Of a stretch of DNA of 64,000 nt, positions 1 to 50,188 are shown in pieces. The stretch lies in the NCBI RefSeq assembly GCF_051903065.1, contig NZ_CP178438.1. One strand, given 5' to 3'. Each line of letters opens with the position of its first letter. The first letter of the stretch is position 1. The stretch is from Escherichia coli (GTDB lineage Bacteria > Pseudomonadota > Gammaproteobacteria > Enterobacterales > Enterobacteriaceae). Made by a program: the position numbers and the translations under genes. Below the pieces are notes generated by a model. That model made no database searches and was not told the origin of the DNA. It worked only from the letters and a program-made list of their open reading frames with translations.

Positions 1-660
1 CACCGGATTGTTTTTACGGCGGCGGCAGAGAATGTCGATCATCAGGTCGATTTCGTGGTCGCGGCACAGTACCGGGTCAAGTTTTCCGTTACGGGCGTCT
101 GCGGTCATGTTTTTGGCGTAGCGGGCCAGCAGGGTGTCGCTGGTTTCCGTTGCGCGGGGCGTTTGCCCGCCAGCCAGATCCACGGATTCGGCGGATTCTT
201 TTGTCCATGCGGCGAAATCCTGCTGTAACTGGTCGCGGTTTATGGCCGTCAGCAGACGGGCAGCAGCGGGTGGAATATAGCGCAGCGGTGAATGCAACAG
301 AGTAAGCAGCAGGACGCCGCTGCGCAGTTCGCTGTGCTGCATCTGGGCTGAGGCCAGCAGCCATGACTCCTTGAGCCATTCGATCAGCATCGGGGAGAAG
401 CTGGGATAGCCATCGGCGGAACGTCCGCCGGGATAACTCTCCACGGTCAGCGCCTGGCGTAAATCCTCCGCACTGATGCCTGTGCGTTCGGCAATCACCC
501 TTACGTCGTTGCGCGGGATTGCCAGCATCTGTAACAGCACATGGGCAACGGTGATCTCACTGGCCTGCTGGCTCATACACTCCGAGGCAGCCACTTCCAG
601 CGCCTGTTTTGCAAAGGGGTTAAGCCGCTTTACCAGCGTGGCTAAATCAATCTGGATCAT
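1..660 (-). CDS. tssH: T6SS AAA+ ATPase ClpV/TssH, N-terminal ~220 codons only (gene continues past window start)
   Basis: Minus-strand frame open to the window edge, ATG at 660-658. Translation [32 protein letters not shown]...[23 protein letters not shown] matches the ClpV N-domain. Absent from the ORF track because there is no stop inside the window. Confidence 0.85.
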
Positions 661-669
661 AAGATGTCC

Positions 670-1443
670 TTATCGGAGTAATTTATTGAGCTGATGCAGA
701 ATATCCTGTGTCTGGCTGTCCAGACGCAGCAGATAAAACAGATAAAATACGGCCAGCACAACAAGACCTCCGCACATTACATGCCTGATGGTCAGCCGCC
801 GGATTAACTGATAACGCCCACCCTGTATGTTGTTCTTCTGGTGAAGCAGCGGAAATGGCGCATCGCCGCGCAGTTTGTGCAGGGCATGGTGCAGGCGCTG
901 GTAGATCCGCTCAAATTCATCCTGTTGCTGAATGGCAACCTTGTAGCGCCCGCGAAAGCCGAGCGAAAAACAAAGGTATAAAAATTCCAGCAGATCCTGG
1001 TAACGTACCGGCTCCCGGATAAGGCGTTCGAGCAGGATAAACACTTTCTCGCCGCCCCAGGCTTCGTTATGAAAATGAACCAGCAGCGACTGTTTGATCC
1101 ATTCGTTTTTGTTGGACCAGCCGTTGCCCAGCGCCGCTTCATCAATAAACGTGCAGAGAATGTAACGGAACGAAACAATGACGCCCGGTTCGTATCCCTG
1201 TTCCTGGAGTAGTTGTTCTACGGCCTGGACATCGGTTACCACCTGGGCAAACAGATGTTCTGGCATGGCCTGGCTGTTCATGGTGGACAGACGCATCACC
1301 ATGCCGAGCAACGGCGTGGCGGCGTCAATCATTGGGTTCAGGCTGTTGCCGCGAAGGGCGAGACGGTACTGACGTCCTGATGTTCCGCTCTCCGGCTCCA
1401 TGGGAAAAACCGACGGTTCACCCATACCGCTGATATCGCTCAT
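670..1443 (-). CDS. tssL: T6SS membrane protein TssL (DotU/IcmH family)
   Basis: 257-aa ORF with a C-terminal hydrophobic helix (LVVLAVFYLFYLL) and DotU-like N-domain; sits in a T6SS gene string. Confidence 0.85.
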   Translation of the reverse strand: MSDISGMGEPSVFPMEPESGTSGRQYRLALRGNSLNPMIDAATPLLGMVMRLSTMNSQAMPEHLFAQVVTDVQAVEQLLQEQGYEPGVIVSFRYILCTFIDEAALGNGWSNKNEWIKQSLLVHFHNEAWGGEKVFILLERLIREPVRYQDLLEFLYLCFSLGFRGRYKVAIQQQDEFERIYQRLHHALHKLRGDAPFPLLHQKNNIQGGRYQLIRRLTIRHVMCGGLVVLAVFYLFYLLRLDSQTQDILHQLNKLLR

Positions 1444-1447
1444 TCAC

Positions 1448-2794
1448 TTATCCCCTTATCGCCCAGAGCTGAAGGTTCAGATCGGGGAAGGTGCCGGAGA
1501 TATGCAGCGCCAGCGCGCCCGCTTTTATCACGTCCTGCCAGGCTGGGGTGCCTTTTTCCAGTTCGAAGTAAACATAACCTTCATGCCAGGGCAACTGACG
1601 CGGCGCAGCGGTAAGCGTGTGCAGCGGAATACCCGGCACCTGCACGCTGACCACGCTGCGGATTTTGTCGGTAGCGGCCACTTTCGACTGCTGGATGAAC
1701 TGGCGTTGTACCTGGTCGTAGGGCATCCTGGCGCGCACTGCCAGTACCAGCTTGCAGGACTGCAACAGTGTGGGATCGTTGATGGTGGCGATCCAGGTCC
1801 CCTCTGAAAAGAACAGCGGCAGATTCTGCGCACGCGGCACCAGTACGGTATTGAGCGCGCGCCGCAGTTCCGGGATCACGGTTCTGGTGAAGGTCGCGGT
1901 AAGATCCCTGTGATTATATGGCTCCACGGTGCAGGGCAGGCGATTACCTTCGGTAAAGGTCATCAGTTCTCCCAGCAGCCCCACCAGATCCCGGTAGAAG
2001 GCTTCCGGATGCAGCGTGTGCAGTTGGGAACGATGCGTGAACTGCATTTGATGGCGGTTAAGCATCTGCAACATCATAAATTCGGCTACATCGGCGATCC
2101 CGCTCTGTTCAGGCGAACCAATGCGCCCGGCCAGGTCAGCGGCGCGGGTGGCAAGCAGTCCCTGCACCTCGCCGGAGAATGCCCCGAGCAACCCGCTGAC
2201 ACGGACGGCCTGAATGGTGGGAATAAAGGTGTTGTCCAGCACCAGCGCGCCGGTGGCATTTTTATTGAGGATAAGGCACAGGGGGAGAGTCACCATCGCG
2301 CTGAGATCATCTGCGCCGCTGACTATCCTGGGGATCAACTGTCCCAGACCGACTGGCTGTTCGTCGCCTTCGTCAGTGTGAAAATCACGGACGCGGGTAT
2401 GGGTGAGGCGGTAACGCTCCGTACCCTGACCGGCGCTGTGCAACCCCTGGATTTCATTGATCACGTCGCTTATCACCGGCAGCGCCAGATAAATACTGTG
2501 GCTCTCTTTCGATGAAAGGGTTCCCGGCTGGAAAGGTTCCGGCAGCAGATCTTGGTCGGGAATACTGAATACGGTGCCGTCAGGCATGCAGCCCGCCGCA
2601 CGGTCAATCATAATTTTGCCCTGAGCAAGCAGTTCGGTATTGATGGAGAGTTCCGTAAAGCCCCAGAAAAAATCACCCAGTGCATCCAGACGACGGGTCA
2701 GCAGGTACTCGCAGTGACGCTGCTGTTGCTGAAAATGCTGCGGCAGGGCAAACAGCCCTTCCTGCCAGATCACCTTGTTTTTCATTGTTGCCAT
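1448..2794 (-). CDS. tssK: T6SS baseplate protein TssK
   Basis: 448 aa; N-terminus MATMKNKVIWQEGLFALPQHFQQQ is the typical TssK start; synteny. Confidence 0.9.
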   Translation of the reverse strand: MATMKNKVIWQEGLFALPQHFQQQQRHCEYLLTRRLDALGDFFWGFTELSINTELLAQGKIMIDRAAGCMPDGTVFSIPDQDLLPEPFQPGTLSSKESHSIYLALPVISDVINEIQGLHSAGQGTERYRLTHTRVRDFHTDEGDEQPVGLGQLIPRIVSGADDLSAMVTLPLCLILNKNATGALVLDNTFIPTIQAVRVSGLLGAFSGEVQGLLATRAADLAGRIGSPEQSGIADVAEFMMLQMLNRHQMQFTHRSQLHTLHPEAFYRDLVGLLGELMTFTEGNRLPCTVEPYNHRDLTATFTRTVIPELRRALNTVLVPRAQNLPLFFSEGTWIATINDPTLLQSCKLVLAVRARMPYDQVQRQFIQQSKVAATDKIRSVVSVQVPGIPLHTLTAAPRQLPWHEGYVYFELEKGTPAWQDVIKAGALALHISGTFPDLNLQLWAIRG

Positions 2795-2796
2795 CG

Positions 2797-3321
2797 TCAG
2801 TTTTCCTCTTTTTTCATCTCAATCGCACTGGCGCGGATGTGCACCAGCAGGCGATAGTGGTGGCCGATACTTTCTACCGGCTCAATTTGTTTCCATTCTG
2901 TGGACTGGTCGTCTGAAAAATAGGCAATGACGCCGATATAACCGGTTTTCTCATCCAGCTTGATCGGCGGCAGTGTTTTTACGGTATCCGGCAACAGGTT
3001 GAAGTCCTGGTGATCGATATAGTTTTTCCCTAGCACGTCGGGCAGCGCGGTGGTGGCAACCTGGTCGTAGTCGGCGGCCTGGAATTTGGAGTCGTCGCTC
3101 AGATAAATCAGCTGGACATCCACCGGCGCGGCTTCGCCGTCCGCCGTCAGGTTGCTGTCCGGCTCGGTCAGCAGCGTGACGGTTAGCTCGGTTGACTGAT
3201 CCATCAGCTTTCCGACCTGAATATCCGGATTGCGGATCACCTGGCTGATTTTTTTCGCTGTTTCACAGCCAGTTAATACGACGCTCATCAGAACGCAGGC
3301 CAGAAACGCTTTGCCGTTCAT
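2797..3321 (-). CDS. tssJ: T6SS outer-membrane lipoprotein TssJ
   Basis: 174 aa; signal peptide with lipobox LTGC; 1-bp spacing to tssK. Confidence 0.85.
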   Translation of the reverse strand: MNGKAFLACVLMSVVLTGCETAKKISQVIRNPDIQVGKLMDQSTELTVTLLTEPDSNLTADGEAAPVDVQLIYLSDDSKFQAADYDQVATTALPDVLGKNYIDHQDFNLLPDTVKTLPPIKLDEKTGYIGVIAYFSDDQSTEWKQIEPVESIGHHYRLLVHIRASAIEMKKEEN

Positions 3322-4610
3322 GCTTCCGGCTCCCGCTGTTTTTCTCGCAGCACCCGGTCATAGACCTGGGCATAAACTTCATTGAACAGCATTTCAAATC
3401 CTTGCTGTCGGCTGGAGGCCAGCTCATCGTAATAGTTGCTGTACATCTGCCATGCCCAGGCGTCGTCCATTTTCTGGCGCAGTTCATGGCTGCGGCGGTA
3501 TTGCGCAAAGCGGCGCATCAGGTTGCCCGGCGAGAAGGCCTCCAGCATGACACGCAACGCTTCCACAATCGCCGCCCGGTTAGCCTCTTCATGATGCCGG
3601 ATGTTGCGCAGGCTTTCGCCGATGGCCGCGGGTGCTGCGAGATGTACCGGACTTTTACCCTCAGCGAACATGACGTTCAGCGCAGTGGCGTAGTCCATAT
3701 CAAGGCGAAGCGGGTTGTCTTCCAGTGGACGCAGGTGTTTATCCGACAGGCTGTTCTGTTGTTGTTGCAGGCTCAGCAATCCCTTAATGGCAGCCTGCAA
3801 CGCCCGTCCGGCCTCTTCGAGAAACTCATCCGCATCCTGAGAATCGTGCAGCGTCAGCGGGCACTCCATACCGCGCAGCAGCGGGGTCACGGCCAGGTGG
3901 TACTGCGCCATGGCAGAAAATTCATCGTCGTCCTCATAACGGGCATTGCCGGGCGGCAGATCCATAAACGGCGTATTGATCCCGTTTGCACCTGTCAGTT
4001 CGGAGGCGAGGGCGACGGGCCGGGAAACGCGTGGTGCGATCGGATCATCTGCCACCATCAGGCTTTCCGTCTGGAGTGCCTGGAGCGGATCGCTGGAAAA
4101 ACCGTGCGCCACCGTGGGGGCAAGCTGATGCTGGAACGGCATTCCCGGATAGGACGGTTGTCCCTCGGTGGTCAGCAGGGTGTCCGCCAGACTGTCGCGG
4201 TTCATCACAATCGTTTCCGGGGTTGCCATCCGCTCGTCGTAGGTGACAGCCGCGCCGTCATGCAGAAACGCTTTCAACGCCAGTGCACCGAGCTGGATCT
4301 CATCCCCTTGGCGCAGGCGGATGAGCGCACCGGAAGAAACCGGGGCCAGATTAATCATCAGTCCCGGCGTCAGGCACCGCAGGCAATAGGCTCCGTCGTG
4401 CCGGATAACGGTACAGGCACGCGCAGCAATGCTTCCCGCCCGATCCTGTACCTGCCAGTGACATTCCGGCGTATGACCAATATCACCGCCGTTTTCGCTG
4501 AACAGGCATTTTGCGGCGCGTCCGCTTTCCAGTTCGTTGCCATTCATCACCTGTAAAGTCAGTGAGGCCTGGCGGGATTGCTGTTTTTCCTCAGCCATAA
4601 GTGGTTCCAT
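3318..4610 (-). CDS. tagH: T6SS-associated FHA-domain protein (TagH-like)
   Basis: Start moved to the internal ATG at 4610 (MEPLMAEEKQQ...), which follows the tssG stop; FHA-like N-domain (GHTPECHW...IRHDGAYCLRCLTPGLMINL). Confidence 0.75.
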   Translation of the reverse strand: MEPLMAEEKQQSRQASLTLQVMNGNELESGRAAKCLFSENGGDIGHTPECHWQVQDRAGSIAARACTVIRHDGAYCLRCLTPGLMINLAPVSSGALIRLRQGDEIQLGALALKAFLHDGAAVTYDERMATPETIVMNRDSLADTLLTTEGQPSYPGMPFQHQLAPTVAHGFSSDPLQALQTESLMVADDPIAPRVSRPVALASELTGANGINTPFMDLPPGNARYEDDDEFSAMAQYHLAVTPLLRGMECPLTLHDSQDADEFLEEAGRALQAAIKGLLSLQQQQNSLSDKHLRPLEDNPLRLDMDYATALNVMFAEGKSPVHLAAPAAIGESLRNIRHHEEANRAAIVEALRVMLEAFSPGNLMRRFAQYRRSHELRQKMDDAWAWQMYSNYYDELASSRQQGFEMLFNEVYAQVYDRVLREKQREPEA

Positions 4611-4614
4611 AGAA

Positions 4615-5664
4615 TTATTCCCTGATTCGGATGGTGATGGCGGGCGGTACTTTCGGCTGACCAATAAAGCTGGTTCTGCCGAGGCGGGAGCTGGCCGGAT
4701 CGCCAAGGCGCATCCCTTTAGCCTGCTGTGGTGCCAGGCACAGCCGTAAATCCCAGGCAAACTGGTCGCGCAGAATAAAGGAAAGGAACATGGTCAGCGG
4801 CAGGTGATTTTCGCCATCGGGTAAAAATGAGAGATAACGCTCCCGCGACAGGTTGCCAATCTGCAACAGAAATTTTCCGCTGCGATCCGGCACCCGTGCG
4901 CCGAGCGTAAAATTAACGCCAAGTATGGAGCGTCCGGGAATATGTCCAGCCGTTTTTCCTTTCGGATTACGTACACCCAGCCGGTTCTGGTGTGCCGAAT
5001 CAATGGCGACTTTACGTAGTTGCCAGCGTTCAATGGTGACATCCGGCAAATCAAAACAGTGCGACACCAGATTACAGATAACCTCCGGCGCGCGGCCTGG
5101 TGTTGCCAGAATTCCGGCGTAAGCCAGCATTTTGCTGTGGTTAATGGCAAGCCTGTCACGCACGCTCTGATTACCCAGCCCGACCAGCGCGTACATGCGC
5201 TGTGAAAAGGTGTCAGTGCCGCCATTACGAAAGCAGATGTAGTAGCGGTATTTGCGCCAGGCATGATAGGCAAACTGTGTCCAGCGGTGGCTGAACAGAT
5301 CGAGAAATTCTTTAAGGCCGTCTTCGTTCTGTGCGGACTCCTGCGCCATCTGATCCAGATAATAGCCCGGTAGCGGCGACTGGCTGCCGGAAAAGCCCAG
5401 GAAACGGGTTTGCAGTACATACTGTCCGTTCTGGCTACGGGAAAGCACACTCAGGTCCGTACCCGGAAAACCGATATTGGCGTCAGAGCTGAAACGCACG
5501 ATCTCTTGGGCTGGCTCGGTACGCAGGGAAATATCCTGGCCCGGAGCGCCATACCGACGGTACAGCGCCTCCATCAGCACATAGAAATTGCAGTTGCGCA
5601 CATCCGCCGATAACGGCGGTTTTACCGCTATATAAGGGCGTGCTGACCCATTTTCTCCTGCCAT
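4615..5664 (-). CDS. tssG: T6SS baseplate protein TssG
   Basis: 349-aa ORF, TssG/ImpH-like; overlaps the tssF 3' end as is typical. Confidence 0.85.
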   Translation of the reverse strand: MAGENGSARPYIAVKPPLSADVRNCNFYVLMEALYRRYGAPGQDISLRTEPAQEIVRFSSDANIGFPGTDLSVLSRSQNGQYVLQTRFLGFSGSQSPLPGYYLDQMAQESAQNEDGLKEFLDLFSHRWTQFAYHAWRKYRYYICFRNGGTDTFSQRMYALVGLGNQSVRDRLAINHSKMLAYAGILATPGRAPEVICNLVSHCFDLPDVTIERWQLRKVAIDSAHQNRLGVRNPKGKTAGHIPGRSILGVNFTLGARVPDRSGKFLLQIGNLSRERYLSFLPDGENHLPLTMFLSFILRDQFAWDLRLCLAPQQAKGMRLGDPASSRLGRTSFIGQPKVPPAITIRIRE

Positions 5665-7487
5665 TCCCAGGCCTCCTGACTTTCCGTGTTGATGATTTTC
5701 AGACAGTGGTACGAATTGATGCTGGCGTAGAGAGCAAAAAAGTGCGAGAGCACTGTACCAAGAAGATAAATTTCACCTTCGCAGATAAATGGATCGGGAC
5801 GTATCCACAACGTGGTCGCCAGCCCGCGAACCGGCACGCCTTTAAACAACCTGTCAACAGGTTTGGTTTCGAGTTTTTCTATGGCATCCAGTTTCTGGCG
5901 CGACAGTCTGGCCCGCTGCGGATGGTGAGCGCCTGGCAGGTCGAAGGTCCGCAGGATCTGGATCAGTGTCTCCCTGTCCAGCAGGGAGAGGTAGTTCAGG
6001 TTCATCGCGGAAATCAGCGACCAGTGCATGTCGCCGTCCGTGACTGGCCAGAGCGGCTGCGTTGGGCGTGTGACATTATGAAATGAGGCCACCGCCGGGT
6101 TTTTGTTGACGGCCACGCAGATATCGCCGATATGCAGCCGAGCAGGGATCATACGGTTGGTACAGATTAATGACGTGGTGATCACATCATCATTAAACCG
6201 TGAGCTGTCCGGAATGCTGCCGTCCGCATGGACAAAGGCGATACTATGTTCAAGCCCGCGGTGAAACAGGGATGTTTTAGTCCGGTGATGCCAGTAAACG
6301 ACTTCCCGCTGGCGGCTGTACTCCATCTGGTGCTGGAAGCTTTCAAATTCGGGCCAGACACGCGCCTGGCTGCCAGGGTTGGATTCAGTACCTGAAACTT
6401 TGACTTTGCTGGTGACTGTGCTTATCTGAAAAATGTCATAAGCGTCGGGATGCCGGTGGCTGGCGCGCAGCGGGTATTCCGCTATCCGTCCATCAGGCCT
6501 GACGGGTTCCGCATAATGCGTAAACAGGTTAATGGCTGGCGTACAGTGCAGACGCAGTGAGTCCTGGCGTAGCTTGATGTCGGCAGGTAACGGGCGGTTA
6601 AAGTGCAGGCGCAGCGTAAACGCGCTGACCGGGAAATCGTCCGGTAGTGGCGCAACATCGCGCAGATGGAAAAAAAAGAAGGCTTCGGGATAGCAGAAAT
6701 ACTCCTGGAGTACCCGATAGCCGCTGTGGACATTTTTCGGCCACGGTAGCAGGGCGTCCTGGTTTTCAAATCCGGCGGCCTCCAGCCACAGATCCGGCAG
6801 CGGCAGGCGGTACTCTCCGGCAATCAGTTCCGCATCCATCAGGCATTCGCAAAACCACAGATAAAGCTGGTGTCGGGTATAATCGTCTTCATTACCCAGC
6901 CAGAACGTTATTTTGTTCAGGTCAAGCATGGCGGGGGAGACATTGTTATCTGCGGTAAAACTGATATCTATGATGCCTTCTTTCAGGCTGCTGGCGTTGC
7001 GGGTGTCGAGAATGCGCAGTGGTTGCAGCCAGATATCGCGCGCCAGCGTGAAATGACAGGCTACGGAAGAAACGATTTTATCATGATTGTCAGACAGCAC
7101 CTTCTGAGCAGCCAGGGCGGACTTTTCTGAGCGGCTTCTGATCAGTTCATTACGACAGACCTGAACAGGGACTTTTAACTGATCGGTTTTGGGTTCATAG
7201 GCAATAACCGTCATGGCCGGAACCGGGCGTAAATAGTTTGCCCACAGCATACGGATTAGCCCATGAGTGAATTCGGGGAATTCGTCCTCAAGTTTCTGGC
7301 GCAGGCTACCGGACATAAAGGCAAAGGCTTCCATCAGTCGCTCCACGTCCGGATCACCCTCTTTCTCGGCCAGAAAGTGGGCCAGATGTGGTTTTTCCTG
7401 CGCCAGCAGTTTGCCAAGCTGGCGAAGATAATCCAGCTCTTCGCGGTAGTAACGTTCTTCAAAAGCCACAGAGATCACTCCACACAA
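5628..7487 (-). CDS. tssF: T6SS baseplate protein TssF
   Basis: 619-aa ORF; ...EERYYREELDYLRQLGKLLAQEKPHLAHFL is the TssF N-terminal signature. The track start is a TTG, so the exact start (7487 vs a few codons inside) is uncertain. Confidence 0.85.
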   Translation of the reverse strand: MCGVISVAFEERYYREELDYLRQLGKLLAQEKPHLAHFLAEKEGDPDVERLMEAFAFMSGSLRQKLEDEFPEFTHGLIRMLWANYLRPVPAMTVIAYEPKTDQLKVPVQVCRNELIRSRSEKSALAAQKVLSDNHDKIVSSVACHFTLARDIWLQPLRILDTRNASSLKEGIIDISFTADNNVSPAMLDLNKITFWLGNEDDYTRHQLYLWFCECLMDAELIAGEYRLPLPDLWLEAAGFENQDALLPWPKNVHSGYRVLQEYFCYPEAFFFFHLRDVAPLPDDFPVSAFTLRLHFNRPLPADIKLRQDSLRLHCTPAINLFTHYAEPVRPDGRIAEYPLRASHRHPDAYDIFQISTVTSKVKVSGTESNPGSQARVWPEFESFQHQMEYSRQREVVYWHHRTKTSLFHRGLEHSIAFVHADGSIPDSSRFNDDVITTSLICTNRMIPARLHIGDICVAVNKNPAVASFHNVTRPTQPLWPVTDGDMHWSLISAMNLNYLSLLDRETLIQILRTFDLPGAHHPQRARLSRQKLDAIEKLETKPVDRLFKGVPVRGLATTLWIRPDPFICEGEIYLLGTVLSHFFALYASINSYHCLKIINTESQEAWEWQEKMGQHALI

Positions 7488-7900
7488 TAGCGTTGATGGT
7501 TGTCCAGCAAAATGTCAAATTCAAACACTCCCCTGGTTTCGCTGACATCGACCGTAGCCACAATATGAAAACGCAGTTCCACAGGGGCGTATTCATCCGG
7601 TGCAGCAGCCGTAACAACAACATCGGTAATACGAGGTTCGTAATGTAAAATGCACTGGCTAATGGACTTACGGATTTCTCGTCTGAAATCGCTGGAGGCC
7701 AGCGATTCATCATTTAAATCAGTAATCCCCAGCTCTGGTGAGCCATAACAACTGCCGGAGCGGGTATTCAGGACCTGTTGCAGGTTACGTCTGATGGAAC
7801 GTATCAGTGCTTCTTTTGGATTCTGGTATGAAGGCGGGTTGGCCGCCTCACGGATACGTTCAAAAAGACTGCTGGTTGGCCCTGAATCCCGTCTTTGCAT
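7475..7900 (-). CDS. tssE: T6SS baseplate protein TssE (gp25-like)
   Basis: 141-aa ORF between tssC and tssF; size and position fit gp25-like TssE. Confidence 0.85.
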   Translation of the reverse strand: MQRRDSGPTSSLFERIREAANPPSYQNPKEALIRSIRRNLQQVLNTRSGSCYGSPELGITDLNDESLASSDFRREIRKSISQCILHYEPRITDVVVTAAAPDEYAPVELRFHIVATVDVSETRGVFEFDILLDNHQRYCVE

Positions 7901-7904
7901 CTGA

Positions 7905-9389
7905 TTATTCCTTATCCAGTCGTCCGACCAGACTCAGGTCGAAACTGGCACCCATGTATTTAAAATGCGGTCTGACAGAAATCGCGACCTGGTACCAGCC
8001 TGGCTCACCATCCACATCAAGTACCTCGATCTTCGCCTGACGTAATGGCCGGTGGCTGCGGACTTCGGCAGGCGGATTCTCCTGGTCGGCCACATACTGG
8101 CGAATCCAGGTGTTCAGCTCGCGCTCCAGGTCACTGCGTTCTTTCCATGAGCCAAGCTGTTCGCGCTGAATTACCTTGATGTAATGCGCTAACCTACTGA
8201 TAAAAAATAAGTATGGCAGCTGGGTGCCGAGTTTATAGTTGGTCTCCGCAGCCTTGCCTTCGGGGGTTTTGGGGAATGTTTTGGGTTTCTGCACCGAGTT
8301 GGCCGAGAAAAAGCACGCATTATCAGACCCTTTACGCATGGTCAGTGTGATAAAGCCTTCTTCCGCCAGCTCATACTCTCTCCGGTCAGTTACCAACACT
8401 TCAGTCGGAATTTTTGCCTGCATTTGCCCCATGGATTCATACAGATGCACCGGGAGGTCTTTGACTGCGCCGCCGCTGGAAGGGCCAATGATATTGGGAC
8501 ACCAGCGATATTTAGCAAAACTTTCAGCCAGGTTCGCAGCTAGTAAAAACGAGGTGTTCCCCCACAAATAAGACTCGTGACTCTGGCTGACGTCTTCATG
8601 GTAACGGAAGGTCCTGGCTGGGTTCTCATCCGGCGAGTAAGGGTGACGCAGCAGGAACCGGGGGGCGGTCAGCCCCAGGTAGCGTGAATCTTCTGATTCA
8701 CGCAAGGCACGCCAGCGGGAATAGGCCGGGCCTTCAAAGATGGCTCCTGGTTCTTTAATCCCCGGTAACTCTGTCCATGAGTCCAGACCGAAAAATTCGG
8801 ATGATACTGATGAGAGGAACGGGCTGTGCGCCATCGCACTGACCTGGCTGATATATTTCAGCAACTTCATATCCGGCGTGGTGTTCTTAAAGGCAAAGTT
8901 GCCGATTACCGCCGCCACTGGCTCACCGCCAAATTGTCCGTAACCGCTTGAATATACATGTTTGTAATATGCAGACTGCGTGATTTCAGGTGCAAATTCG
9001 AAATCATCCAGCAGTTCTTCCTGAGTGACATTCAGGAAATGGACCTTGATGTTTTCCCGTGTATCCGCGCGTTCAACCAGCAGCTTCAGCGAGCGCAGCA
9101 GGGATTCCAGTTCCTGAAACTCCGGGGCATGAATAATGGCATCCATCTGCCTGCTGGTTCGGGCATCAATATCAGCAATCATGGCGTCAACGGCCAGGAT
9201 ATTGATAGGTTCAGCGCTACTGTCACCCTGTAACATGGCGGCAATAAAGGCGCTCACGCCCTGGCGGGTGATATCGTAGCTTTCTGATTTAGGCTGGACG
9301 CGTGTTTGCGCCATGATTTCATCAAGCAGAGATGGGGGCGCGGCGGTTTGCGACGCGCTGACGGGAGCAATATCTTCCTTTACTGACAT
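7905..9389 (-). CDS. tssC: T6SS contractile sheath large subunit TssC
   Basis: 494 aa, VipB/TssC-like; immediately downstream of tssB. Confidence 0.9.
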   Translation of the reverse strand: MSVKEDIAPVSASQTAAPPSLLDEIMAQTRVQPKSESYDITRQGVSAFIAAMLQGDSSAEPINILAVDAMIADIDARTSRQMDAIIHAPEFQELESLLRSLKLLVERADTRENIKVHFLNVTQEELLDDFEFAPEITQSAYYKHVYSSGYGQFGGEPVAAVIGNFAFKNTTPDMKLLKYISQVSAMAHSPFLSSVSSEFFGLDSWTELPGIKEPGAIFEGPAYSRWRALRESEDSRYLGLTAPRFLLRHPYSPDENPARTFRYHEDVSQSHESYLWGNTSFLLAANLAESFAKYRWCPNIIGPSSGGAVKDLPVHLYESMGQMQAKIPTEVLVTDRREYELAEEGFITLTMRKGSDNACFFSANSVQKPKTFPKTPEGKAAETNYKLGTQLPYLFFISRLAHYIKVIQREQLGSWKERSDLERELNTWIRQYVADQENPPAEVRSHRPLRQAKIEVLDVDGEPGWYQVAISVRPHFKYMGASFDLSLVGRLDKE

Positions 9390-9411
9390 ACTGAAAATCC
9401 TTCTGTGAAAA

Positions 9412-9915
9412 TTATTTCTGAACGGCGATACCCAGTTCTTGGATCAGCTGCTCGCGGCTGTCTTCGTTTTCCAGTAGCGCCTGAAGTTGTGCGCGGAAGG
9501 CCGGAATATTGCCTAGTGGAGACTTAAGTGCGACCAGAGCTTCACGCAATTCGAGAAGACGTTTTATTTCTGGTACCTGGCTGGCAATATGGTCCGGAGA
9601 AAGGTCATCCATAGATTTGACTTTCAGGTTGACGTACATTTGCTCATTGGGAGCGTCACTGAGTTCAGCCGGAACAACAAACTCCCGTTCAATGTCAGCT
9701 TCTGAAATGACTGCGTTGAGGTTATAGCGGTTGATAGCAATGGCAGTTCGCTCGTCCAACGGCGTGTTATCTGGTTTCCCTTTCAGATTGCCGGTGATCA
9801 ATAAATTCAGCGGCAATTCGATATCAGCAGCCACCCCATCAACTTTTGGTGTATACCGAACGCTGATTCTTTCTTTCGGCGCGACACTGCCGCCATTGTT
9901 GTTCATTTTGCTCAT
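9412..9915 (-). CDS. tssB: T6SS contractile sheath small subunit TssB
   Basis: 167 aa, VipA/TssB-like (RISVRYTPKVDGVAADIELPLNLLITGNL...). Confidence 0.9.
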   Translation of the reverse strand: MSKMNNNGGSVAPKERISVRYTPKVDGVAADIELPLNLLITGNLKGKPDNTPLDERTAIAINRYNLNAVISEADIEREFVVPAELSDAPNEQMYVNLKVKSMDDLSPDHIASQVPEIKRLLELREALVALKSPLGNIPAFRAQLQALLENEDSREQLIQELGIAVQK

Positions 9916-10493: not shown

Positions 10494-10502
10494 CCTGTAA
10501 CT
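10494..10502. repeat. 9-bp target-site duplication CCTGTAACT (left copy) of the IS903 insertion
   Basis: Identical 9-mer directly abuts both IS ends (10494-10502 and 11560-11568). Confidence 0.85.
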
Positions 10503-11559
10503 GGCTTTGTTGAATAAATCGAACTTTTGCTGAGTTGAAGGATCAGATCACGTATCTTCCCGACAACGCAGACCGTTCCGTGGCAAAGCAAAAGTTCAAA
10601 ATCACCAACTGGCCCACCTACAATAAAGCCCTCATCAACCGTGGCTCCATAACTTTCTGGCTGGATGATGAAGCTATTCAGGCCTGGTATGAGTCAGCAA
10701 CACCTTCTTCACGAGGCAGACCTCAGCGCTATTCTGACCTTGCCATCACGACTGTGCTGGTCATTAAACGCGTATTCAGGCTGACCCTGCGCGCTGCGCA
10801 GGGCTTTATTGATTCCATTTTTTCTCTGATGAACGTTCCGCTACGCTGCCCGGATTACAGCTGTGTCAGCAGGCGGGCAAAGTCGGTTAATGTCAGTTTC
10901 AAAACGCCCACCCGGGGTGAAATCGCACACCTGGTAATTGATTCCACCGGGCTGAAGGTCTTCGGTGAAGGCGAGTGGAAAGTCAAAAAGCATGGCCAGG
11001 AACGCCGCCGTATCTGGCGTAAGCTGCATCTCGCCGTTGACAGTAAAACACATGAAATCATCTGCGCTGACCTGTCGCTGAACAACGTTACGGACTCAGA
11101 GGCCTTCCCCGGGTTAATCCGGCAAACCCACCGGAAAATCAGGTCAGCCGCCGCCGATGGCGCTTACGATACCCGGCTATGTCACGATGAACTGCGGCGT
11201 AAGAAAATCAGCGCGCTTATCCCTCCCCGAAAAGGTGCGGGTTACTGGCCCGGTGAATATGCAGACCGTAACCGTGCAGTGGCTAATCAGCGAATGACCG
11301 GGAGTAATGCGCGGTGGAAATGGACAACAGATTACAACCGTCGCTCGATAGCGGAAACGGCGATGTACCGGGTAAAACAGCTGTTCGGGGGTTCACTGAC
11401 ACTGCGTGACTACGATGGTCAGGTTGCAGAGGCTATGGCCCTGGTACGAGCGCTGAACAAAATGACGAAAGCAGGTATGCCTGAAAGCGTGCGTATTGCC
11501 TGAAAACACAACCCGCTACGGGGGAGACTTACCCGAAATCTGATTTATTCAACAAAGCC
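10503..11559 (+). mobile_element. IS903-type insertion sequence (IS5 family), about 1057 bp
   Basis: Terminal inverted repeats GGCTTTGTTGAATAAATC at 10503-10520 and its reverse complement at 11542-11559; internal transposase ORF; flanked by a 9-bp direct repeat. Confidence 0.9.
10535..11503 (+). CDS. IS903-group transposase
   Basis: 322-aa ORF (TTG start in the track; true start may be slightly internal); IS5/IS903-type transposase sequence. Confidence 0.85.
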   Translation: MKDQITYLPDNADRSVAKQKFKITNWPTYNKALINRGSITFWLDDEAIQAWYESATPSSRGRPQRYSDLAITTVLVIKRVFRLTLRAAQGFIDSIFSLMNVPLRCPDYSCVSRRAKSVNVSFKTPTRGEIAHLVIDSTGLKVFGEGEWKVKKHGQERRRIWRKLHLAVDSKTHEIICADLSLNNVTDSEAFPGLIRQTHRKIRSAAADGAYDTRLCHDELRRKKISALIPPRKGAGYWPGEYADRNRAVANQRMTGSNARWKWTTDYNRRSIAETAMYRVKQLFGGSLTLRDYDGQVAEAMALVRALNKMTKAGMPESVRIA

Positions 11560-11568
11560 CCTGTAACT
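11560..11568. repeat. 9-bp target-site duplication CCTGTAACT (right copy)
   Basis: See left copy. Confidence 0.85.
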
Positions 11569-11684
11569 CGAATAAAGAAAAGGGTGTGGTTCCTGATGTG
11601 AGCCGCATCACACTCTAACCCGTCGGGGATTAACGACGGGTTGTTCGTAAAACAGCAGTTGATAATTTCACAAGGAGTTCATAA

Positions 11685-12203
11685 ATTCCAACCCCATGTT
11701 ACATTTCAATTACAGGTCAGACCCAGGGGAACATCACTGCCGGTGCTTTCACCGCAGATTCTGTCGGCAATATCTACGTGCAGGGACACGAAGATGAAAT
11801 GCTGGTGCAGGAGTTTCTGCATAACGTTACTGTTCCAACCGATCCACAGTCTGGTCAACCTTCCGGGCAGCGCGCGCACAAACCGTTCATTTTCACCGTG
11901 GCGCTGAACAAAGCCGTTCCGCTGCTGTACAACGCGCTGGCCTCCGGTGAAATGCTGCCGAAAGTGGAGCTGCACTGGTGGCGTACTTCAGTTGAAGGCA
12001 AGCAGGAGCACTACTTCACCACACGTCTTACTGACGCGACGATTGTGGACATGAACCTGCACATGCCGCACTGCCAGGACCCTGCACAGCGTGAGTTTAC
12101 GCAATTGCTCGCAGTATCACTGGCATACCGTAAGGTTGAGTGGGAGCACATCAAATCCGGTACTTCTGGTGCCGATGACTGGCGTGCACCGCTGGAAGCA
12201 TAA
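11685..12203 (+). CDS. hcp: T6SS tube protein Hcp, apparent non-ATG (ATT) start
   Basis: Frame-0 translation IPTPCYISITGQTQGNITAGAFTADSVGNIYVQGHEDEML... follows a TAA stop at 11682-11684; AGGAG at 11673-11677 is 7 nt upstream of ATT 11685. The track called only the GTG at 11778. Confidence 0.75.
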   Translation: MPTPCYISITGQTQGNITAGAFTADSVGNIYVQGHEDEMLVQEFLHNVTVPTDPQSGQPSGQRAHKPFIFTVALNKAVPLLYNALASGEMLPKVELHWWRTSVEGKQEHYFTTRLTDATIVDMNLHMPHCQDPAQREFTQLLAVSLAYRKVEWEHIKSGTSGADDWRAPLEA

Positions 12204-12423: not shown

Positions 12424-14823
12424 ATGTCCTTAAAAGGTCTGCGCTTTACGCTGGAGATTGACGGCCAGGAGCCGGACACCTTTGCAGTGGTGAATTTCAG
12501 GTTAATCCAGAACCAGTCTTATCCGTTTGTGATGAGTGTGGATGTTGCCAGCGACTCTTTTATGCAGACGGCGGAGATGCTGCTGGAGAAGAAGGCGACG
12601 CTGGCCATCTGGCAGGGCGCGGTGGCGCAGCGTTATGTCACCGGCGTGGTGGCGGGTTTTGGTATGCAGGAGAACAATGGCTGGCAGATGCGTTATCACC
12701 TGCGTATTGAGCCGCCGTTATGGCGGTGCGGGCTGCGGCAGAACTTCCGTATCTTCCAGCAGCAGGATATCCGGACGATATCGGCCACGTTACTGAACGA
12801 GAACGGCGTCACGGAGTGGACGCCGCTGTTTTATGAGGACCATCCGGCGCGGGAGTTCTGTGTGCAGTACGGGGAGTCGGACCTGGCGTTTCTGGCGCGG
12901 CTGTGGGCGGAGGAGGGAATTTTCTTCTTTGAGCGGTTTGCGGCGGACAGTCCGGAGCAGAAGCTGACGCTGTGCGACGATGTGGCGGGGCTGTCACAGG
13001 CGGGAGAGCTTCCGTTTAACCCGGACACATCGGCAGGAGCGGAGACAGAGTGTGTCAGTATGTTCCGTTATGAGGCGTATGTCCGCCCGTCGTCGGTGCA
13101 GAGCCAGGATTACACGTTTAAGGTGCCGGACTGGCCGGGGATGTATGAGCAGCAGGGTGAGAACCTGAACGGACAGCTGGCGCAGTATGAGATATTTGAT
13201 TATCCGGGAAGGTTCAAGGATGAACAGCACGGTAAGGATTTCACGCTGTACCAGATGGAGAGCCTGCGCAGTGATGCGGAAAAGGCCACAGGGCAGAGTA
13301 ATTCACCGAAGCTGTGGCCGGGAACGCGGTTTACGCTGACGGGGCATCCGCAGAAGATGCTGAACCGTGAATGGCAGGTGGTACAGAGCATTCTGTCAGG
13401 GGACCAGCCGCAGGCGCTGCACGGCAGCCAGGGGAGAGGAACCACGCTGGGAAATCAGTTAGAGGTGATACCGGCGGACCGGACGTGGCGTCCACGGCTG
13501 CAAAGCAAACCGAAGGTGGACGGGCCGCAGAGTGCCATTGTGACCGGGCCGAAGGGTGAGGAGATATTCTGCGACGAACATGGCCGGGTACGGGTGAAGT
13601 TCCACTGGGACCGTTATCACGGGATGACGGAGGCGAGTTCATGCTGGGTGCGGGTATCACAGGCGTGGGCGGGGCCGGGGTTTGGTAACCTGGCGATACC
13701 GCGGGTGGGTCAGGAGGTGATTGTTGACTTCCTGAACGGAGACCCGGACCAGCCGCTGGTCATGGGCCGGACGTACCATGAGGACAACCGTTCGCCGGGG
13801 AGCCTGCCGGGGACGAAGACGCAGATGACGATACGGTCGAAGACCTATAAAGGAAGCGGATTTAACGAGTTGCGCTTTGAGGACGCCACCAGTAATGAGC
13901 AGGTGTATATCCATGCGCAGAAGAACATGGATACGGAGGTGCTCAACGACCGGACAACGGATGTGAAACATGACCATACGGAAACCATCGGTAACGACCA
14001 GAAGATAACGGTGGTGAAGGGTCAGACGGTTCAGGTCGGTACAAAAAAAGAGGGGGGCCACGACCAGAGTATCACGGTGGCGAATGACCGGTGCATCACG
14101 GTACGTAATGACCAGACGCTGCAGGTGACGAATGACCGGACGGTGAGCGTGAGTCACGATGACGGTCTGTACGTAAAAAATGACCGAAAGGTGACGGTGA
14201 AAGGGAAGCAGGAGCATAAGACGACGGGTAACCACATCAGCCTGGTGGAGGGGAAGCACAGCCTGGAGGTGAAGGGGGACCTGGCGGAGAAGGTGAGTGG
14301 CGCGCTGGGGATAAAAGTGGACGGGGATATCGTGCTGGAGAGCAGCAGCCGGATAAGCCTGAAGGTGGGTGGCTCGTTTATCGTCATTCAGCCGGGCGGA
14401 GTGGATATTGCCGGGCCGAAGATAAACCTGAACGGTGGGGGCAGTGCGGGGACACCGGTGGGGACGATGCAGCCGGCGGTGCTGGAGGCTCCGGAGGATG
14501 AGAGCAGTGATGATGGCAGTGATGACTCCGGAGAGGATAGTGGCAATCCCGCAGGGAGTGACGGAGGAGGTGATGGCGGTGACGATGAAGATGATCCTGA
14601 AAAATATACCCTCCAGTTCCATTTTACGGACGATGACGGGATACCGTATTCAGAGACGCAGTATATTGCCTTTTTTGAGGATGGCACACAGACGCGTGGT
14701 GAAACAGACAGAGAGGGATATACAGAAATATTTTATACAGATACAGCACAGGAAATTAAAGTCCAATTGTTATTTTCGGATGCTTTTTATATTGAGCCGG
14801 AGGGGCATTATGGCAGGGAATAA
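12424..14823 (+). CDS. vgrG: T6SS spike protein VgrG with acidic linker and C-terminal extension domain
   Basis: 799 aa; gp27/gp5-like body, repetitive beta-helix (VKNDRKVTV...), acidic Asp/Glu/Ser-rich linker, then a ~65-aa C-terminal domain. Confidence 0.9.
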   Translation: MSLKGLRFTLEIDGQEPDTFAVVNFRLIQNQSYPFVMSVDVASDSFMQTAEMLLEKKATLAIWQGAVAQRYVTGVVAGFGMQENNGWQMRYHLRIEPPLWRCGLRQNFRIFQQQDIRTISATLLNENGVTEWTPLFYEDHPAREFCVQYGESDLAFLARLWAEEGIFFFERFAADSPEQKLTLCDDVAGLSQAGELPFNPDTSAGAETECVSMFRYEAYVRPSSVQSQDYTFKVPDWPGMYEQQGENLNGQLAQYEIFDYPGRFKDEQHGKDFTLYQMESLRSDAEKATGQSNSPKLWPGTRFTLTGHPQKMLNREWQVVQSILSGDQPQALHGSQGRGTTLGNQLEVIPADRTWRPRLQSKPKVDGPQSAIVTGPKGEEIFCDEHGRVRVKFHWDRYHGMTEASSCWVRVSQAWAGPGFGNLAIPRVGQEVIVDFLNGDPDQPLVMGRTYHEDNRSPGSLPGTKTQMTIRSKTYKGSGFNELRFEDATSNEQVYIHAQKNMDTEVLNDRTTDVKHDHTETIGNDQKITVVKGQTVQVGTKKEGGHDQSITVANDRCITVRNDQTLQVTNDRTVSVSHDDGLYVKNDRKVTVKGKQEHKTTGNHISLVEGKHSLEVKGDLAEKVSGALGIKVDGDIVLESSSRISLKVGGSFIVIQPGGVDIAGPKINLNGGGSAGTPVGTMQPAVLEAPEDESSDDGSDDSGEDSGNPAGSDGGGDGGDDEDDPEKYTLQFHFTDDDGIPYSETQYIAFFEDGTQTRGETDREGYTEIFYTDTAQEIKVQLLFSDAFYIEPEGHYGRE

Positions 14824-16364: not shown

Positions 16365-16600
16365 ATAAAGATGATGAGCAACATTCTGTTCATATTAGGT
16401 CTAATGAATTTTCCATCAATATCGATGGAAGCTTGGTAAAGCAACCTTATTGATTAAAATGTATCGCAGGTTTTATTTTCTGTAATGCTGGTGCATGTGC
16501 GTAAATATTTCTTAAGAGCCGGAAACACCTCTTCCGCCTTTATCGACGATAAACCTACCGCCAGAACCGGTGATGCCATTGACTGCGGTGGCGTGGTTAA

Positions 16601-16941
16601 AGGTGGAGGGCGATGTGGTGCTGGAGAGCAGCAGCCGGATAAGCCTGAAGGTGGGCGGTTCGTTTGTGGTCATCCATTCAGGGGGCGTGGACATCGTCGG
16701 GCCGAAAATCAATCTCAATAGCGGCGGTAGTCCGGGAACGCCGGTGCCGACGCTGCAACCGGCGGTTCTGAAAGCGCTGGCAGATGATAAAAGTTTAGCG
16801 GCTGAGCAAAATGATAGTAATGCATCGTCCGATCAGAATGATAACAACGATGAGGGTGAGGAAGCGCCAGAAAAATCGGTGTGTAAGGAGTGCCTGAAAA
16901 GGGCGCAGGAAGCCGCCGCCGCTTTTGCGCCTCGTGGATAA
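16601..16941 (+). pseudogene. Orphan vgrG 3' remnant with a different C-terminal tail
   Basis: Nucleotide and protein similarity to vgrG 14310-14470 (VLESSSRISLKVGGSF.V.IQ/HSGGVDI.GPKINLN.GGS.GTPV), then a divergent acidic tail; no vgrG N-terminal body upstream. Confidence 0.7.
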
Positions 16942-16947
16942 GGGAGA

Positions 16948-17718
16948 ATGACGATGATAACAGTATCGCCACGCGCTACCGATCAAGACAAATATATTAT
17001 CTGGCTGAAGCAGGCTGAATCATTCTGTTCTGCCGCTGGTTTGGATTACATAGATGTGCTTGTTGACCAGGCTGGAACCGACCAACCTTTGCAAAATGAG
17101 ATACTTCATCTGTGGCCAGCCATTCACTGGTATGCCCTGTTTGAAGGAACGCCTGAAGCTGAGACGATGGAGTATTCCCCTGTAGTGTTACGCCTGTACT
17201 TTGCGCTCAGTAGCCATCGCAAATTTCTGGCACAACTGATGGCGTCATTTGCTGATACGCCGCGTCTTACTTTGTTGATATCCCCTCTTACATTCGACCT
17301 GCTGGGGCGGCATCTTCAGGTATTGTCACAGGTTCAGTGGGAAGAACAGACCGGATTGCTGCGTTACTATGATAATCGGGTGTTCCCTTTACTGTTCACA
17401 CATGTTTTGACTAACGAGCAGCAGGCGACATTTACTGATATTGCGTTGTTCTGGAGCTGGTTAGACCGTGATGGTGAGATTAACTGGAAATCAGGAAGTT
17501 TTTCACCAGAACGCAGGCTTACTGACAACCCGGAGATGAATCGGGTGGATGATGTACAGGTGGGATTGATGGGCTGTATCTGCGACGCTGAAGTCCTGAT
17601 GAAGGAGAAAGCAGTCAGTGAACTCAGTCAGGAAAGCTATTTTGCCCACTGTCTTGATATTGCTTTCAGAGCCAATGACGCGAAATATTTCGGAGCTTTG
17701 CGGGACTTCGAAGGATAA
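16948..17718 (+). CDS. Putative T6SS effector adaptor (DUF4123-like), low confidence on family
   Basis: 256-aa ORF between the vgrG remnant and the immunity/effector pair; position and size fit adaptor/chaperone genes. Start may be the third codon (16954). Confidence 0.45.
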   Translation: MTMITVSPRATDQDKYIIWLKQAESFCSAAGLDYIDVLVDQAGTDQPLQNEILHLWPAIHWYALFEGTPEAETMEYSPVVLRLYFALSSHRKFLAQLMASFADTPRLTLLISPLTFDLLGRHLQVLSQVQWEEQTGLLRYYDNRVFPLLFTHVLTNEQQATFTDIALFWSWLDRDGEINWKSGSFSPERRLTDNPEMNRVDDVQVGLMGCICDAEVLMKEKAVSELSQESYFAHCLDIAFRANDAKYFGALRDFEG

Positions 17719-18061
17719 TATTGTGGTGATGTACGGGGAGATTTATCTGTTTAAAAGTCCGTAGCTGTTAATATCAAGAGATAATCGTGAAATAAACGGA
17801 AAATCAAGCTCGACATGTAATGGTAGTATCCATCATGTTGCATTTGTGTTCGATCGTAATGTCAGTTCACTTGGCTGCAATATATTTTGCGTAATATCAT
17901 CAATGCTCTGTCGATATTCCAATGTGTGACAATCGAAAGATATGCATTTTATTTGCTTCTTTGTCAAAACTTTATTGTCGTAGAAACAATACCCATCAAT
18001 TAAAATCTCTCAAAGTAAAAGAACCAGCAACATGTCCAGCAAAATAAGGAAAAGTATCAGT

Positions 18062-18586
18062 ATGAGAGCGATTTTCAAATGTTATTCTCTAATGATTTTA
18101 TTTGCAGTATCAGGCTGTTCAATGGCAAAAAATAGCGGTGATTACACTGCTGTGGATATTAATGGGATAAATCATACGGATAAGGATATAAATTATATAC
18201 ACATCAATGGTTACGGCGGACCAAATATTGGTCCATTCGGAGACGGTGGAGGATATTGTTGCGTTATGCTGCCAGATAAGTGGCATTCTGGATTAAAAGC
18301 CCAGGTTGAATGGGAAATTACCCCAAATACAGTACCTCCGCCACCACTCTATAAGGATTGGGATAAATATCAGGCCTGGGAGAAAAAACTAAAAGAAAGT
18401 TACATTCAACATACCGCAATTGTTGATATCCCGGAATACGATGCTGAGCTTTGTGGCCTGACCGTTCATTTTCTAACGTGTAATCAGATTAAAGTGACAA
18501 CCGTCTGCCAGAAGTATGGCACACCGAATTATCCCATCAAAGAACCCCGCGAGATGAAGGAACCAGCAACATGTCCAGCGAAATAA
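18062..18586 (+). CDS. Lipoprotein, Tli-like candidate immunity for the adjacent lipase
   Basis: MRAIFKCYSLMILFAVSGC lipoprotein signal; AAGGA ~12 nt upstream. The track start at 18032 lies inside a duplicated 3'-end repeat and is rejected. Confidence 0.6.
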   Translation: MRAIFKCYSLMILFAVSGCSMAKNSGDYTAVDINGINHTDKDINYIHINGYGGPNIGPFGDGGGYCCVMLPDKWHSGLKAQVEWEITPNTVPPPPLYKDWDKYQAWEKKLKESYIQHTAIVDIPEYDAELCGLTVHFLTCNQIKVTTVCQKYGTPNYPIKEPREMKEPATCPAK

Positions 18587-18602
18587 GTGGTCTGGCTTTT
18601 CC

Positions 18603-31990: not shown

Positions 31991-32100
31991 GGTGCCGGAT
32001 GTGCTTACGCTTATCCGGCCTACGAATCGTGCTTTAACGGTAGGCCGGATAAGGCGTTCACGCCGCATCCGGCAATTGTGCACCAATGCCGGATGCGCCC
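31991..32100. repeat. REP elements (right of rayT)
   Basis: Inverted REP pair GCCGGATAAG...GCCGCATCCGGCA. Confidence 0.85.
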
Positions 32101-32112
32101 CTTAAAGGCCAA

Positions 32113-33843: not shown

Positions 33844-34582
33844 TGAAAGCATTATCGCCGCGCTGCACGGGCAGTCGATTTTCAACGGTGGCGGGTTGTC
33901 GCCGTTAAATAAAATCAGCCCGTCTCATCCGCCAAAACCTGCCACCGTGGCGGTGCCGGAAGAGACGGAGAAAAAAGCGCGCGACGTCAACGAGAAAACG
34001 GCGCTGCTGAAGAAGAAATCCGCCACCGAGCTTGGTGAGCTGGCAACCAGTATCAACACCATTGCCCGTGATGCGCATATGGAAGCGAATCTGGAGATGG
34101 AGATTGTCCCGCAGGGATTACGCGTGCTGATTAAAGACGACCAGAATCGCAATATGTTCGAACGCGGCAGCGCGCAGATTATGCCGTTCTTTAAAACGCT
34201 GCTGGTGGAGTTAGCGCCAGTGTTCGACTCGCTCGATAATAAAATTATTATTACCGGGCATACCGATGCGATGGCCTACAAAAACAATATCTACAACAAC
34301 TGGAACCTTTCGGGTGACCGCGCGCTTTCGGCTCGTCGGGTGCTGGAAGAGGCCGGAATGCCGGAAGATAAAGTGATGCAGGTAAGCGCAATGGCGGACC
34401 AGATGCTGCTGGATGCCAAAAATCCGCAAAGCGCGGGCAATCGGCGTATTGAGATTATGGTGCTGACCAAAAGTGCGTCCGATACGCTGTATCAATACTT
34501 TGGTCAGCATGGGGATAAAGTGGTGCAGCCGCTGGTGCAAAAGCTGGATAAGCAGCAGGTGCTTTCGCAGCGAACGCGCTAA
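33844..34582 (+). pseudogene. lafU: Flag-2 motB-like remnant, 5'-truncated (junction coordinate approximate)
   Basis: OmpA/MotB C-domain (IIITGHTDAM...NWNLSGDRALSARRVLEEAG...NRRIEIMVL); no MotB N-terminal TM segment. Confidence 0.7.
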
Positions 34583-34620
34583 ATGCTGAATCTTTACGCA
34601 TTTCTCAAACCCTGAAATCA

Positions 34621-46157: not shown

Positions 46158-46384
46158 TTTCTTTCCTCTGTTATGCCATCACCCGCGCTCACCTGGACAG
46201 TATGCAGCGGAGACTGAAGAGCCGCAATGCAGGCTTGTCGTGTTGTGAGGTAAGGAGATTTATTCTTAGTGGGATCTTTGCGTGTTGCCTGAAGACGCCC
46301 TGTGCGTATCCAGTTAATGGCAGTCGGTCTGGATATCTTGAGAAAATGACAGGCCTCATCGAGTGTGAGGCTGTATGGCTCCAT
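46034..46384 (-). CDS. xis: Phage excisionase (P22 Xis-like)
   Basis: Start at internal [32 protein letters not shown]; overlaps the int 5' end. Confidence 0.8.
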
Positions 46385-47578: not shown

Positions 47579-47705
47579 TTTGTTCTCCACGTATATGCGC
47601 TGCACCGCGCTGAATTCTGGTAAAAAGAATCCCTCACCATCCGGCGATTATTGAGTAAATTACGTTTCCATAAATGCCCCCGCAGGGGCATTTGCAGTAA
47701 TGAAA

Positions 47706-48530: not shown

Positions 48531-48595
48531 AATAAGTCCTCACTATATAAAGATATTCAGTGATGAGATAAATAATCAGTTAATTAAAAACGATA

Positions 48596-50039: not shown

Positions 50040-50078
50040 TTCACATCTCCTCAAGTTATCAGTTACTTGTTGATGGGG

Positions 50079-50106: not shown

Positions 50107-50188
50107 GTAGGGCGCTTTTTTGTTGCTAACGAATCATCCTGGACTTCATATGCTCCAGGCGGCTACTTCGTGGGCGTCCTGCCTGTTC

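Follow-up and report, generated by a model that had tools for sequence, protein, structure and literature searches.

A probable start-codon lesion (ATG to ATT) in the T6SS2 tube gene hcp2B of one small Escherichia coli clone

INTRODUCTION

In ExPEC and APEC strains of Escherichia coli, the hcp gene located beside vgrG is named hcp2B, is under H-NS repression, and is needed to deliver effectors (PMC5874247). In APEC strain XM, hcp2B and vgrG2 form one operon (Ma et al. 2018; PMC5874247). Changes that weaken or remove T6SS genes have been described in other E. coli lineages. In EHEC O157:H7, a shift of the tssM start from ATG to TTG lowers T6SS output (PMC12981562), and in the MDR lineages ST131 and ST410 the T6SS was lost via IS insertions and deletions (PMC10711316).

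Start codons of the AUU type are rare in this species. AUU is read by the initiator tRNA in E. coli with low efficiency (Hecht et al., Osterman et al.). Initiation from AUU, AUA, AUC, and CUG was placed at 1 to 2% of AUG by Hecht et al., whereas Osterman et al. reported a 6- to 8-fold deficit of AUU relative to AUG, which was 4-fold in the context of infC. The confirmed AUU starts in E. coli are those of infC and pcnB only (Hecht et al.). In a survey of Salmonella based on comparison with close relatives, an ATG-to-ATT change was counted as gene inactivating (Kuo and Ochman 2010; PMC2916853).

Here, we characterize an hcp gene that has ATT at its start position, located in a 64,000-nucleotide stretch of E. 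coli DNA (the window), and compare it with related alleles and with the systems mentioned above.

RESULTS

An hcp reading frame without a canonical start codon

The following features define the hcp start region (all on the plus strand).

11685..12203, +: hcp (tssD; hcp2B-type tube gene of the E. coli T6SS2), identified by translation, TIGR03344, PDB matches, and the annotation of sister genomes
11685..11687, +: ATT, replacing the ancestral ATG; derived base T at 11687 (G in relatives), from alignment and 57-mer counts
11682..11684, +: in-frame TAA directly 5' of the start position, by sequence reading
11673..11677, +: Shine-Dalgarno (SD) sequence AGGAG, 7 nt from ATT, by sequence reading
11778..11780, +: GTG, codon 32, the first canonical in-frame start (ORF list), with no SD-like sequence 5' of it
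11799..11801, +: in-frame ATG, codon 39, used by gene callers as a fallback start (134-aa product) in hcp alleles with a damaged 5' end
11616..11643, +: conserved 10-bp stem-loop in the hcp leader, predicted for both alleles (ATG and ATT) in the MFE and centroid structures

The first-pass annotation had described a conserved Hcp N terminus that directly follows TAA and ATT codons, with AGGAG 7 nt upstream, and direct reading of the sequence confirms this arrangement. The codons after ATT (CCA ACC CCA TGT TAC ATT TCA ATT ...) encode PTPCYISITGQTQG..., and the frame remains open up to TAA 12201-12203, giving 172 codons with ATT counted. The same annotation had named GTG 11778 as the sole conventional in-frame start. 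This codon is indeed the first such start and begins the longest canonical in-frame ORF (141 aa, without 31 residues), but the ATG at 11799 is also in frame. Upstream, no ATG, GTG, or TTG codon occurs in frame 0 between TAA 11631-11633 and TAA 11682-11684; with the latter directly 5' of ATT, an upstream in-frame start is therefore impossible. A small upstream ORF that ends at this TAA and re-initiates at AUU, as in infC, was ruled out by the same scan. The TAA at 11682-11684 is also found in ATG alleles.

The translated frame matches the NCBIfam TssD profile TIGR03344 with an E value of 3.4e-62 (209 bits; cut-off, 58.9), residues 1 to 168 lying on profile positions 1 to 166/167, and matches the PDB Hcp chains 5mxn, 3he1, and 6a2v at 1e-85 to 3e-65. 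The solved chain 5mxn starts with PTPCYISI..., which aligns to codon 2. Because the profile is matched from residue 1 and 5mxn from codon 2, the residues following ATT are, by alignment, the genuine N terminus of the Hcp family. Membership in Hcp/TssD (TIGR03344, PF05638) is thus indicated by a full-length profile match, as well as by placement in a T6SS cluster with divergent tssB and tssC upstream and vgrG downstream; what the gene lacks is a canonical start codon from which it could be translated. In the sister genomes described below, RefSeq/PGAP annotates hcp as WP_001142963.1, a 172-aa CDS from ATT at exactly corresponding coordinates. The ATT allele shares its protein accession with ATG alleles and carries no pseudogene flag. 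The ATT start has therefore already been recorded, but without being marked as defective.

Translation from GTG 11778 or ATG 11799 could in principle supply a shortened functional Hcp, given that these are the only canonical in-frame starts and are the ones picked by gene callers. However, neither codon is preceded by an SD-like sequence, and the products would be devoid of residues 1 to 31 or 1 to 38. Both the family profile and the solved tube structures extend over these residues, which form the first beta strands of the ring. Homologs begin at the full N terminus and not at the equivalent of 11778, as do all 543 ATG alleles counted below. We consider a shortened functional product extremely improbable.

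Derived state and distribution of the ATT codon

Nucleotide-level alignment with a related hcp allele, a check that the first-pass annotation had proposed, revealed a single difference over 201 nt: E. coli 042 has ATG, with G where the window has T at 11687. To estimate frequencies, a 57-mer centred on the start codon was counted in the 547 complete E. coli genomes that carry the locus. The ATG version, otherwise identical, was present in 543 of these genomes and the ATT version in 2, 23CRST027 and 23CRST031, which are sister isolates from human faeces in Ecuador. The 701 nt around hcp match 581 complete genomes. Comparison of the window with 23CRST027 revealed no mismatches over ~62 kb, three homopolymer indels, and two IS1 copies that are absent from the window. 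With no mismatches over this length, the window represents another assembly or isolate of the 23CRST027/031 clone. The two IS1 copies are located at ~23059 and ~31597; their absence from the window implies either that IS1 is moving within the clone or that the isolates differ.

A look-up of the exact VgrG protein of the window returned ten places, of which nine have ATG with an uninterrupted intergenic region and one has ATT. The latter is the NCBI draft GCA_025874605.1, whose contig starts at 11567, at the IS903B edge (see below), and which is free of mismatches to the window over 6.2 kb, the sole difference being 6 nt in a repeat. This difference is located at 15689, where the repeat number of ATTGCA varies in a hypothetical gene downstream of the M35 peptidase gene (249 versus 251 aa). 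The ATG-bearing relative found to be nearest is GCA_044079575.1: it contains no IS, and comparison with the window over 8.4 kb yielded 2 SNPs, including position 11687. Strain ECNB21-M121, which also has ATG, shows ~20 substitutions relative to the window in 38 kb, of which 12 are clustered in a single vgrG patch. The base at the 11687 position is G in ECNB21-M121 and in the relatives L021 and L026.

With so few SNPs separating the window from the closest ATG relative (2 in 8.4 kb), ATT is a recent, derived G-to-T change. As expected of a young pseudogene, the potentially disabling change is derived with respect to close relatives (GCA_044079575.1 and ECNB21-M121). The retention of AUU among orthologs, which would be expected of a start of the infC/pcnB type, was not observed, the ATT codon occurring in one clone only. 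By these genome comparisons, the ATT codon is real, derived, recent, and restricted to one clone, and the earlier proposal that the ATG had mutated to ATT is upheld by the 042 allele, the 57-mer counts, and the near identity of close relatives.

The reality of the codon deserves separate consideration, because the sister RefSeq assemblies contain homopolymer indels typical of long-read-only assemblies and because two other clone-specific substitutions fall at Dcm CCWGG sites, where base calling tends to err. In the sister assemblies, one base is missing from 4- to 5-base homopolymers (G, C, or A) at some of positions 12871, 13399, 49096, and 11107, and these gaps yield the "frameshifted" annotations of vgrG and the IS903B transposase. 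They are probably assembly errors: at both vgrG sites (12871 and 13399), the window agrees with the unrelated strain ECNB21-M121. Decay of vgrG as a reading of the sister-genome "frameshift" was ruled out accordingly, as the sites are G4/G3 homopolymer differences and the window and ECNB21-M121 have an intact 799-aa ORF. An artefact with ATG in the true genome is nonetheless very improbable for the hcp codon. The G-to-T change at 11687 is a transversion outside any Dam or Dcm motif, and the window, in which the homopolymers are correct, has ATT. Even the Dcm-site stop codon in tssM (see below) was confirmed in assemblies of SRA runs. ATT rather than ATG is given by four assemblies of the clone, and since one of these is an independent NCBI draft (GCA_025874605.1), a sequencing error is unlikely.

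Predicted initiation and folding of the ATT allele

The SD sequence of the window hcp lies at a functional distance from AUU (AGGAG with a 7-nt spacer), as in genes of the infC/pcnB type. Some full-length Hcp may consequently still be made from ATT, by analogy with the reported AUU starts, and its residual level could be appreciable, given the strong SD sequence and the A/U-rich leader. Initiation at ATT does not conflict with the reading of a mutated ATG, as PGAP calls the CDS from ATT and AUU is a measured, weak initiator.

Folding of 141 nt gave an MFE of -34.0 kcal/mol for the window allele and -30.9 kcal/mol for the 042 allele, with a hairpin involving the SD sequence and the start codon in the window allele only. 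In this fold, the G-to-U change lets GGAGUU (11674-11679) pair with AAUUCC (11684-11689), covering both elements. In a 66-nt context, both alleles gave -6.5 kcal/mol, and the effect of folding is therefore modest. The models suggest a small extra penalty on translation, in which the new U may let the SD sequence pair with the start region. Independently of the start codon, the leader of all alleles contains the strong 10-bp stem-loop at 11616-11643, followed by UUGUUCGU. This element could serve as an attenuator, a processing site, or a stabilizing structure.

Genomic context of hcp in the T6SS island

The T6SS island is located between tRNA-Asp (aspV) and yafV. Its structural genes are divergent from hcp, whereas hcp, vgrG, an M35 peptidase gene, and a Tle1/Tli1/Tla1 module are on the plus strand.

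1..9915, -: T6SS2 structural genes tssH (partial), tssL/icmH, tssK, tssJ, tagH, tssG, tssF, tssE, tssC, and tssB, from sister annotation and ORFs
12424..14823, +: vgrG (tssI), 799 aa, intact (ORF list)

All of the genes in 1..9915 are open in the window and have identical coordinates in the sister annotation; every other T6SS gene within the window, including vgrG, is likewise open. The VgrG protein is found in identical form in 38 index blocks. The cluster includes a TagH/FHA gene and, at its far end outside the window, a divergent 159-aa hcp of the hcp2A type. A distant-mode blastn search for a close hcp paralog in 23CRST027 returned one place only. This comparison at the DNA level thus gave no close paralog that could act as a substitute; it does not bear on substitution by the divergent hcp2A type.

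Several other features of the region were noted. The 12 substitutions that distinguish the vgrG of the window from that of ECNB21-M121 fall within 75 nt (12604-12678) and look like a gene-conversion or recombination patch between vgrG copies. In tssK, a C-to-T change relative to ECNB21-M121 at position 2552 lies at a Dcm CCTGG site and is present in a Logan contig; it is synonymous, as both genomes have the same TssK protein accession. The interval 16595-20661 contains a vgrG C-terminal fragment, genes for a Tla1 chaperone, a Tli1a immunity protein, and a Tle1-like phospholipase, and then degraded ISAs1 remnants. It resembles a typical mosaic effector island, and the sister genome has an IS1 there. 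Farther downstream, according to the sister annotation (coordinates shifted by IS1), are a lateral-flagella (Flag-2) remnant with truncated flhA and lafU beside dinB (~32100-34600) and a lambdoid prophage next to tRNA-Thr after proA (~45800 to 64000).

Additional T6SS lesions in the same clone

An insertion sequence separates tssB from hcp in the ATT clone.

10503..11559, +: IS903B, 1,057 bp, located 125 nt 5' of the hcp start between the divergent genes tssB and hcp, from BLAST with the 042 intergenic region
10494..10502, no strand: target-site duplication, left copy, 9 bp, CCTGTAACT
11560..11568, no strand: target-site duplication, right copy, 9 bp, CCTGTAACT

Among complete genomes, the IS903B junction was found in the two sister isolates only. 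The right end of IS903B has ~19 to 20 matches in each of their chromosomes, suggestive of an expansion of this IS in the clone. The transposase gene (10535-11503), annotated as IS903B transposase in the sister genomes, is directed toward hcp, so read-through from IS903B into hcp is possible; the insertion may thereby abolish or replace native hcp transcription. A consensus promoter scan of hcp identified only weak sigma-70-like sites (7, versus 3.8 ± 1.9 in shuffled sequences), which were no better than those in the shuffles; one of them overlaps the hcp start codon.

A further lesion affects the membrane-complex gene tssM, which is located outside the window, ~6.4 kb upstream of its position 1 (NZ_AP045789.1, 544953-548480; positions 10954-14481 of L019). 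Codon 694 is changed from CAG to TAG (Q694*) in both sister genomes, and PGAP flags an "internal stop." The 693-aa truncated TssM was also found in Logan short-read contigs of two runs, SRR21143313 and SRR21142187; the contig from the latter shows 100% identity to window positions 1 to 5721. From these matches, we infer that tssM Q694* is present in the genome from which the window is derived. The substitution affects the inner C of a Dcm CCAGG site, a well-known hotspot of deamination. As expected of a degenerating T6SS, the lineage therefore carries further independent lesions, namely, IS903B and tssM Q694*. The occurrence of a nonsense codon and a start-codon loss among the few isolated changes relative to ECNB21-M121 is consistent with relaxed selection on the T6SS or with selection for its shutdown.

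Recurrent loss of hcp in other lineages

Hcp calls of 134 aa, starting from Met39, were found on contigs in 87 index blocks. Ten of these places were examined (window equivalent, 11685-11800; contigs with lesions, L007 to L015); eight carry independent lesions with the ATG intact, and the other two are scaffold gaps. The lesions all fall within the first 38 codons. They comprise two nonsense mutations, Q14* (CAG to TAG, seen in at least 11 samples and located at a Dcm CCAGG site) and S8* (TCA to TGA), together with a frameshift from G4 to G5, a deletion of 8 bp, and the insertion of a Mu-like prophage. Two contigs with a 141-aa product starting at GTG were considered as further ATT alleles and rejected, as they proved to be Nextera-adapter chimeras. 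The independent lesions in other lineages indicate that breakage of hcp2B is a common evolutionary outcome, to which the ATT codon would represent one more route.

DISCUSSION

Hcp is the T6SS tube protein and is consumed in bulk at each firing. We consider it highly probable that the ATT codon is a recent G-to-T start-codon lesion and that it makes hcp2B a hypomorphic or null allele in the decaying T6SS2 of one small clone. The transversion turned the ATG of hcp2B into ATT and would cause a loss of function or a strong reduction. With the SD sequence and its spacing intact, ribosomes can probably still use AUU to initiate full-length Hcp with fMet; if published reporter data apply, the output would lie between a few percent and roughly one sixth of that from ATG. 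Because Hcp is needed in bulk and Hcp2B is needed for delivery, such a drop alone would severely weaken T6SS2. The truncation of tssM is in any case expected to leave the machine dead, whatever the hcp start. Counting IS903B and the tssM nonsense codon, the T6SS of this clone has three lesions, and we therefore regard the ATT codon as part of an erosion, or a selected shutdown, of the system rather than as a conserved regulatory rare start.

A different function for the codon can be envisaged, in which ATT is a selected weak start that keeps Hcp low, as AUU does for infC and pcnB. The intact AGGAG at 7 nt, the measurable initiation from AUU in E. coli, the full-length CDS annotated by PGAP, and the absence of any other coding change relative to the 042 allele are all compatible with this idea. 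Against it, conservation of the codon is lacking (ATG is present in 543 of 547 genomes and in the nearest relatives with an identical VgrG), the allele is limited to a clone with tssM Q694* and with IS903B at the hcp leader, other lineages simply break hcp, and no autoregulatory logic like that of IF3 and infC is apparent. A functional weak start of this kind is unlikely, and selected down-tuning of Hcp2B with a low output of full-length protein is, in our estimation, distinctly unlikely. If true, hcp would be the third natural chromosomal AUU-initiated gene in E. coli, and selection might act to reduce the cost or toxicity of an abundant tube protein in an already disabled machine or might link the output of Hcp to the level of IF3. 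Decay is preferred over a tuned rare start because of the upstream IS903B and the tssM nonsense codon in the same clone.

The decay reading has consequences for annotation. Homology-guided annotation of rare starts can mask a functional start-codon knockdown, and the clone should not be scored as T6SS2 competent merely from an intact hcp CDS annotation. The ATT allele also adds to the repeated erosion of T6SS in commensal and clinical E. coli. A start-codon lesion in a decaying T6SS is an event of a kind already known and involves no new mechanism.

The gene order of the locus corresponds to that of the APEC/ExPEC T6SS2 (PMC5874247), with hcp next to vgrG and divergent from tssB/vipA and with hcp2A (159 aa) at the far end. 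Strain XM has the ATG allele at this locus. Unlike the APEC hcp2B, which has ATG, is expressed, and is required for delivery, the window allele has ATT and an upstream IS903B. The clone resembles ST131 and ST410 (PMC10711316) in having an IS insertion in the T6SS locus, to which it adds point lesions. It differs from those lineages in its clonal identity and in its lesions, and no large deletion was seen in the window. The EHEC tssM case (PMC12981562) is likewise a natural shift to a weaker start in a core gene of the same aspV-island T6SS, also read as evolutionary degeneration. That start arose by a 28-bp tandem duplication, is a canonical weak TTG, and was tested experimentally, whereas the hcp start of the window is a point mutation to a noncanonical codon, with a predicted effect.

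The Salmonella example (PMC2916853) involves the same substitution and the same comparative logic as that applied here to hcp. It belongs to a survey without a test of residual translation, and the hcp ATT allele, for its part, is not treated as a pseudogene in RefSeq. The likeness to infC and pcnB lies in the intact SD sequence and its spacing to AUU. In those two genes, AUU is fixed and tied to regulation; the ATT of hcp, in contrast, is clone specific and derived and belongs to a system with other lesions.
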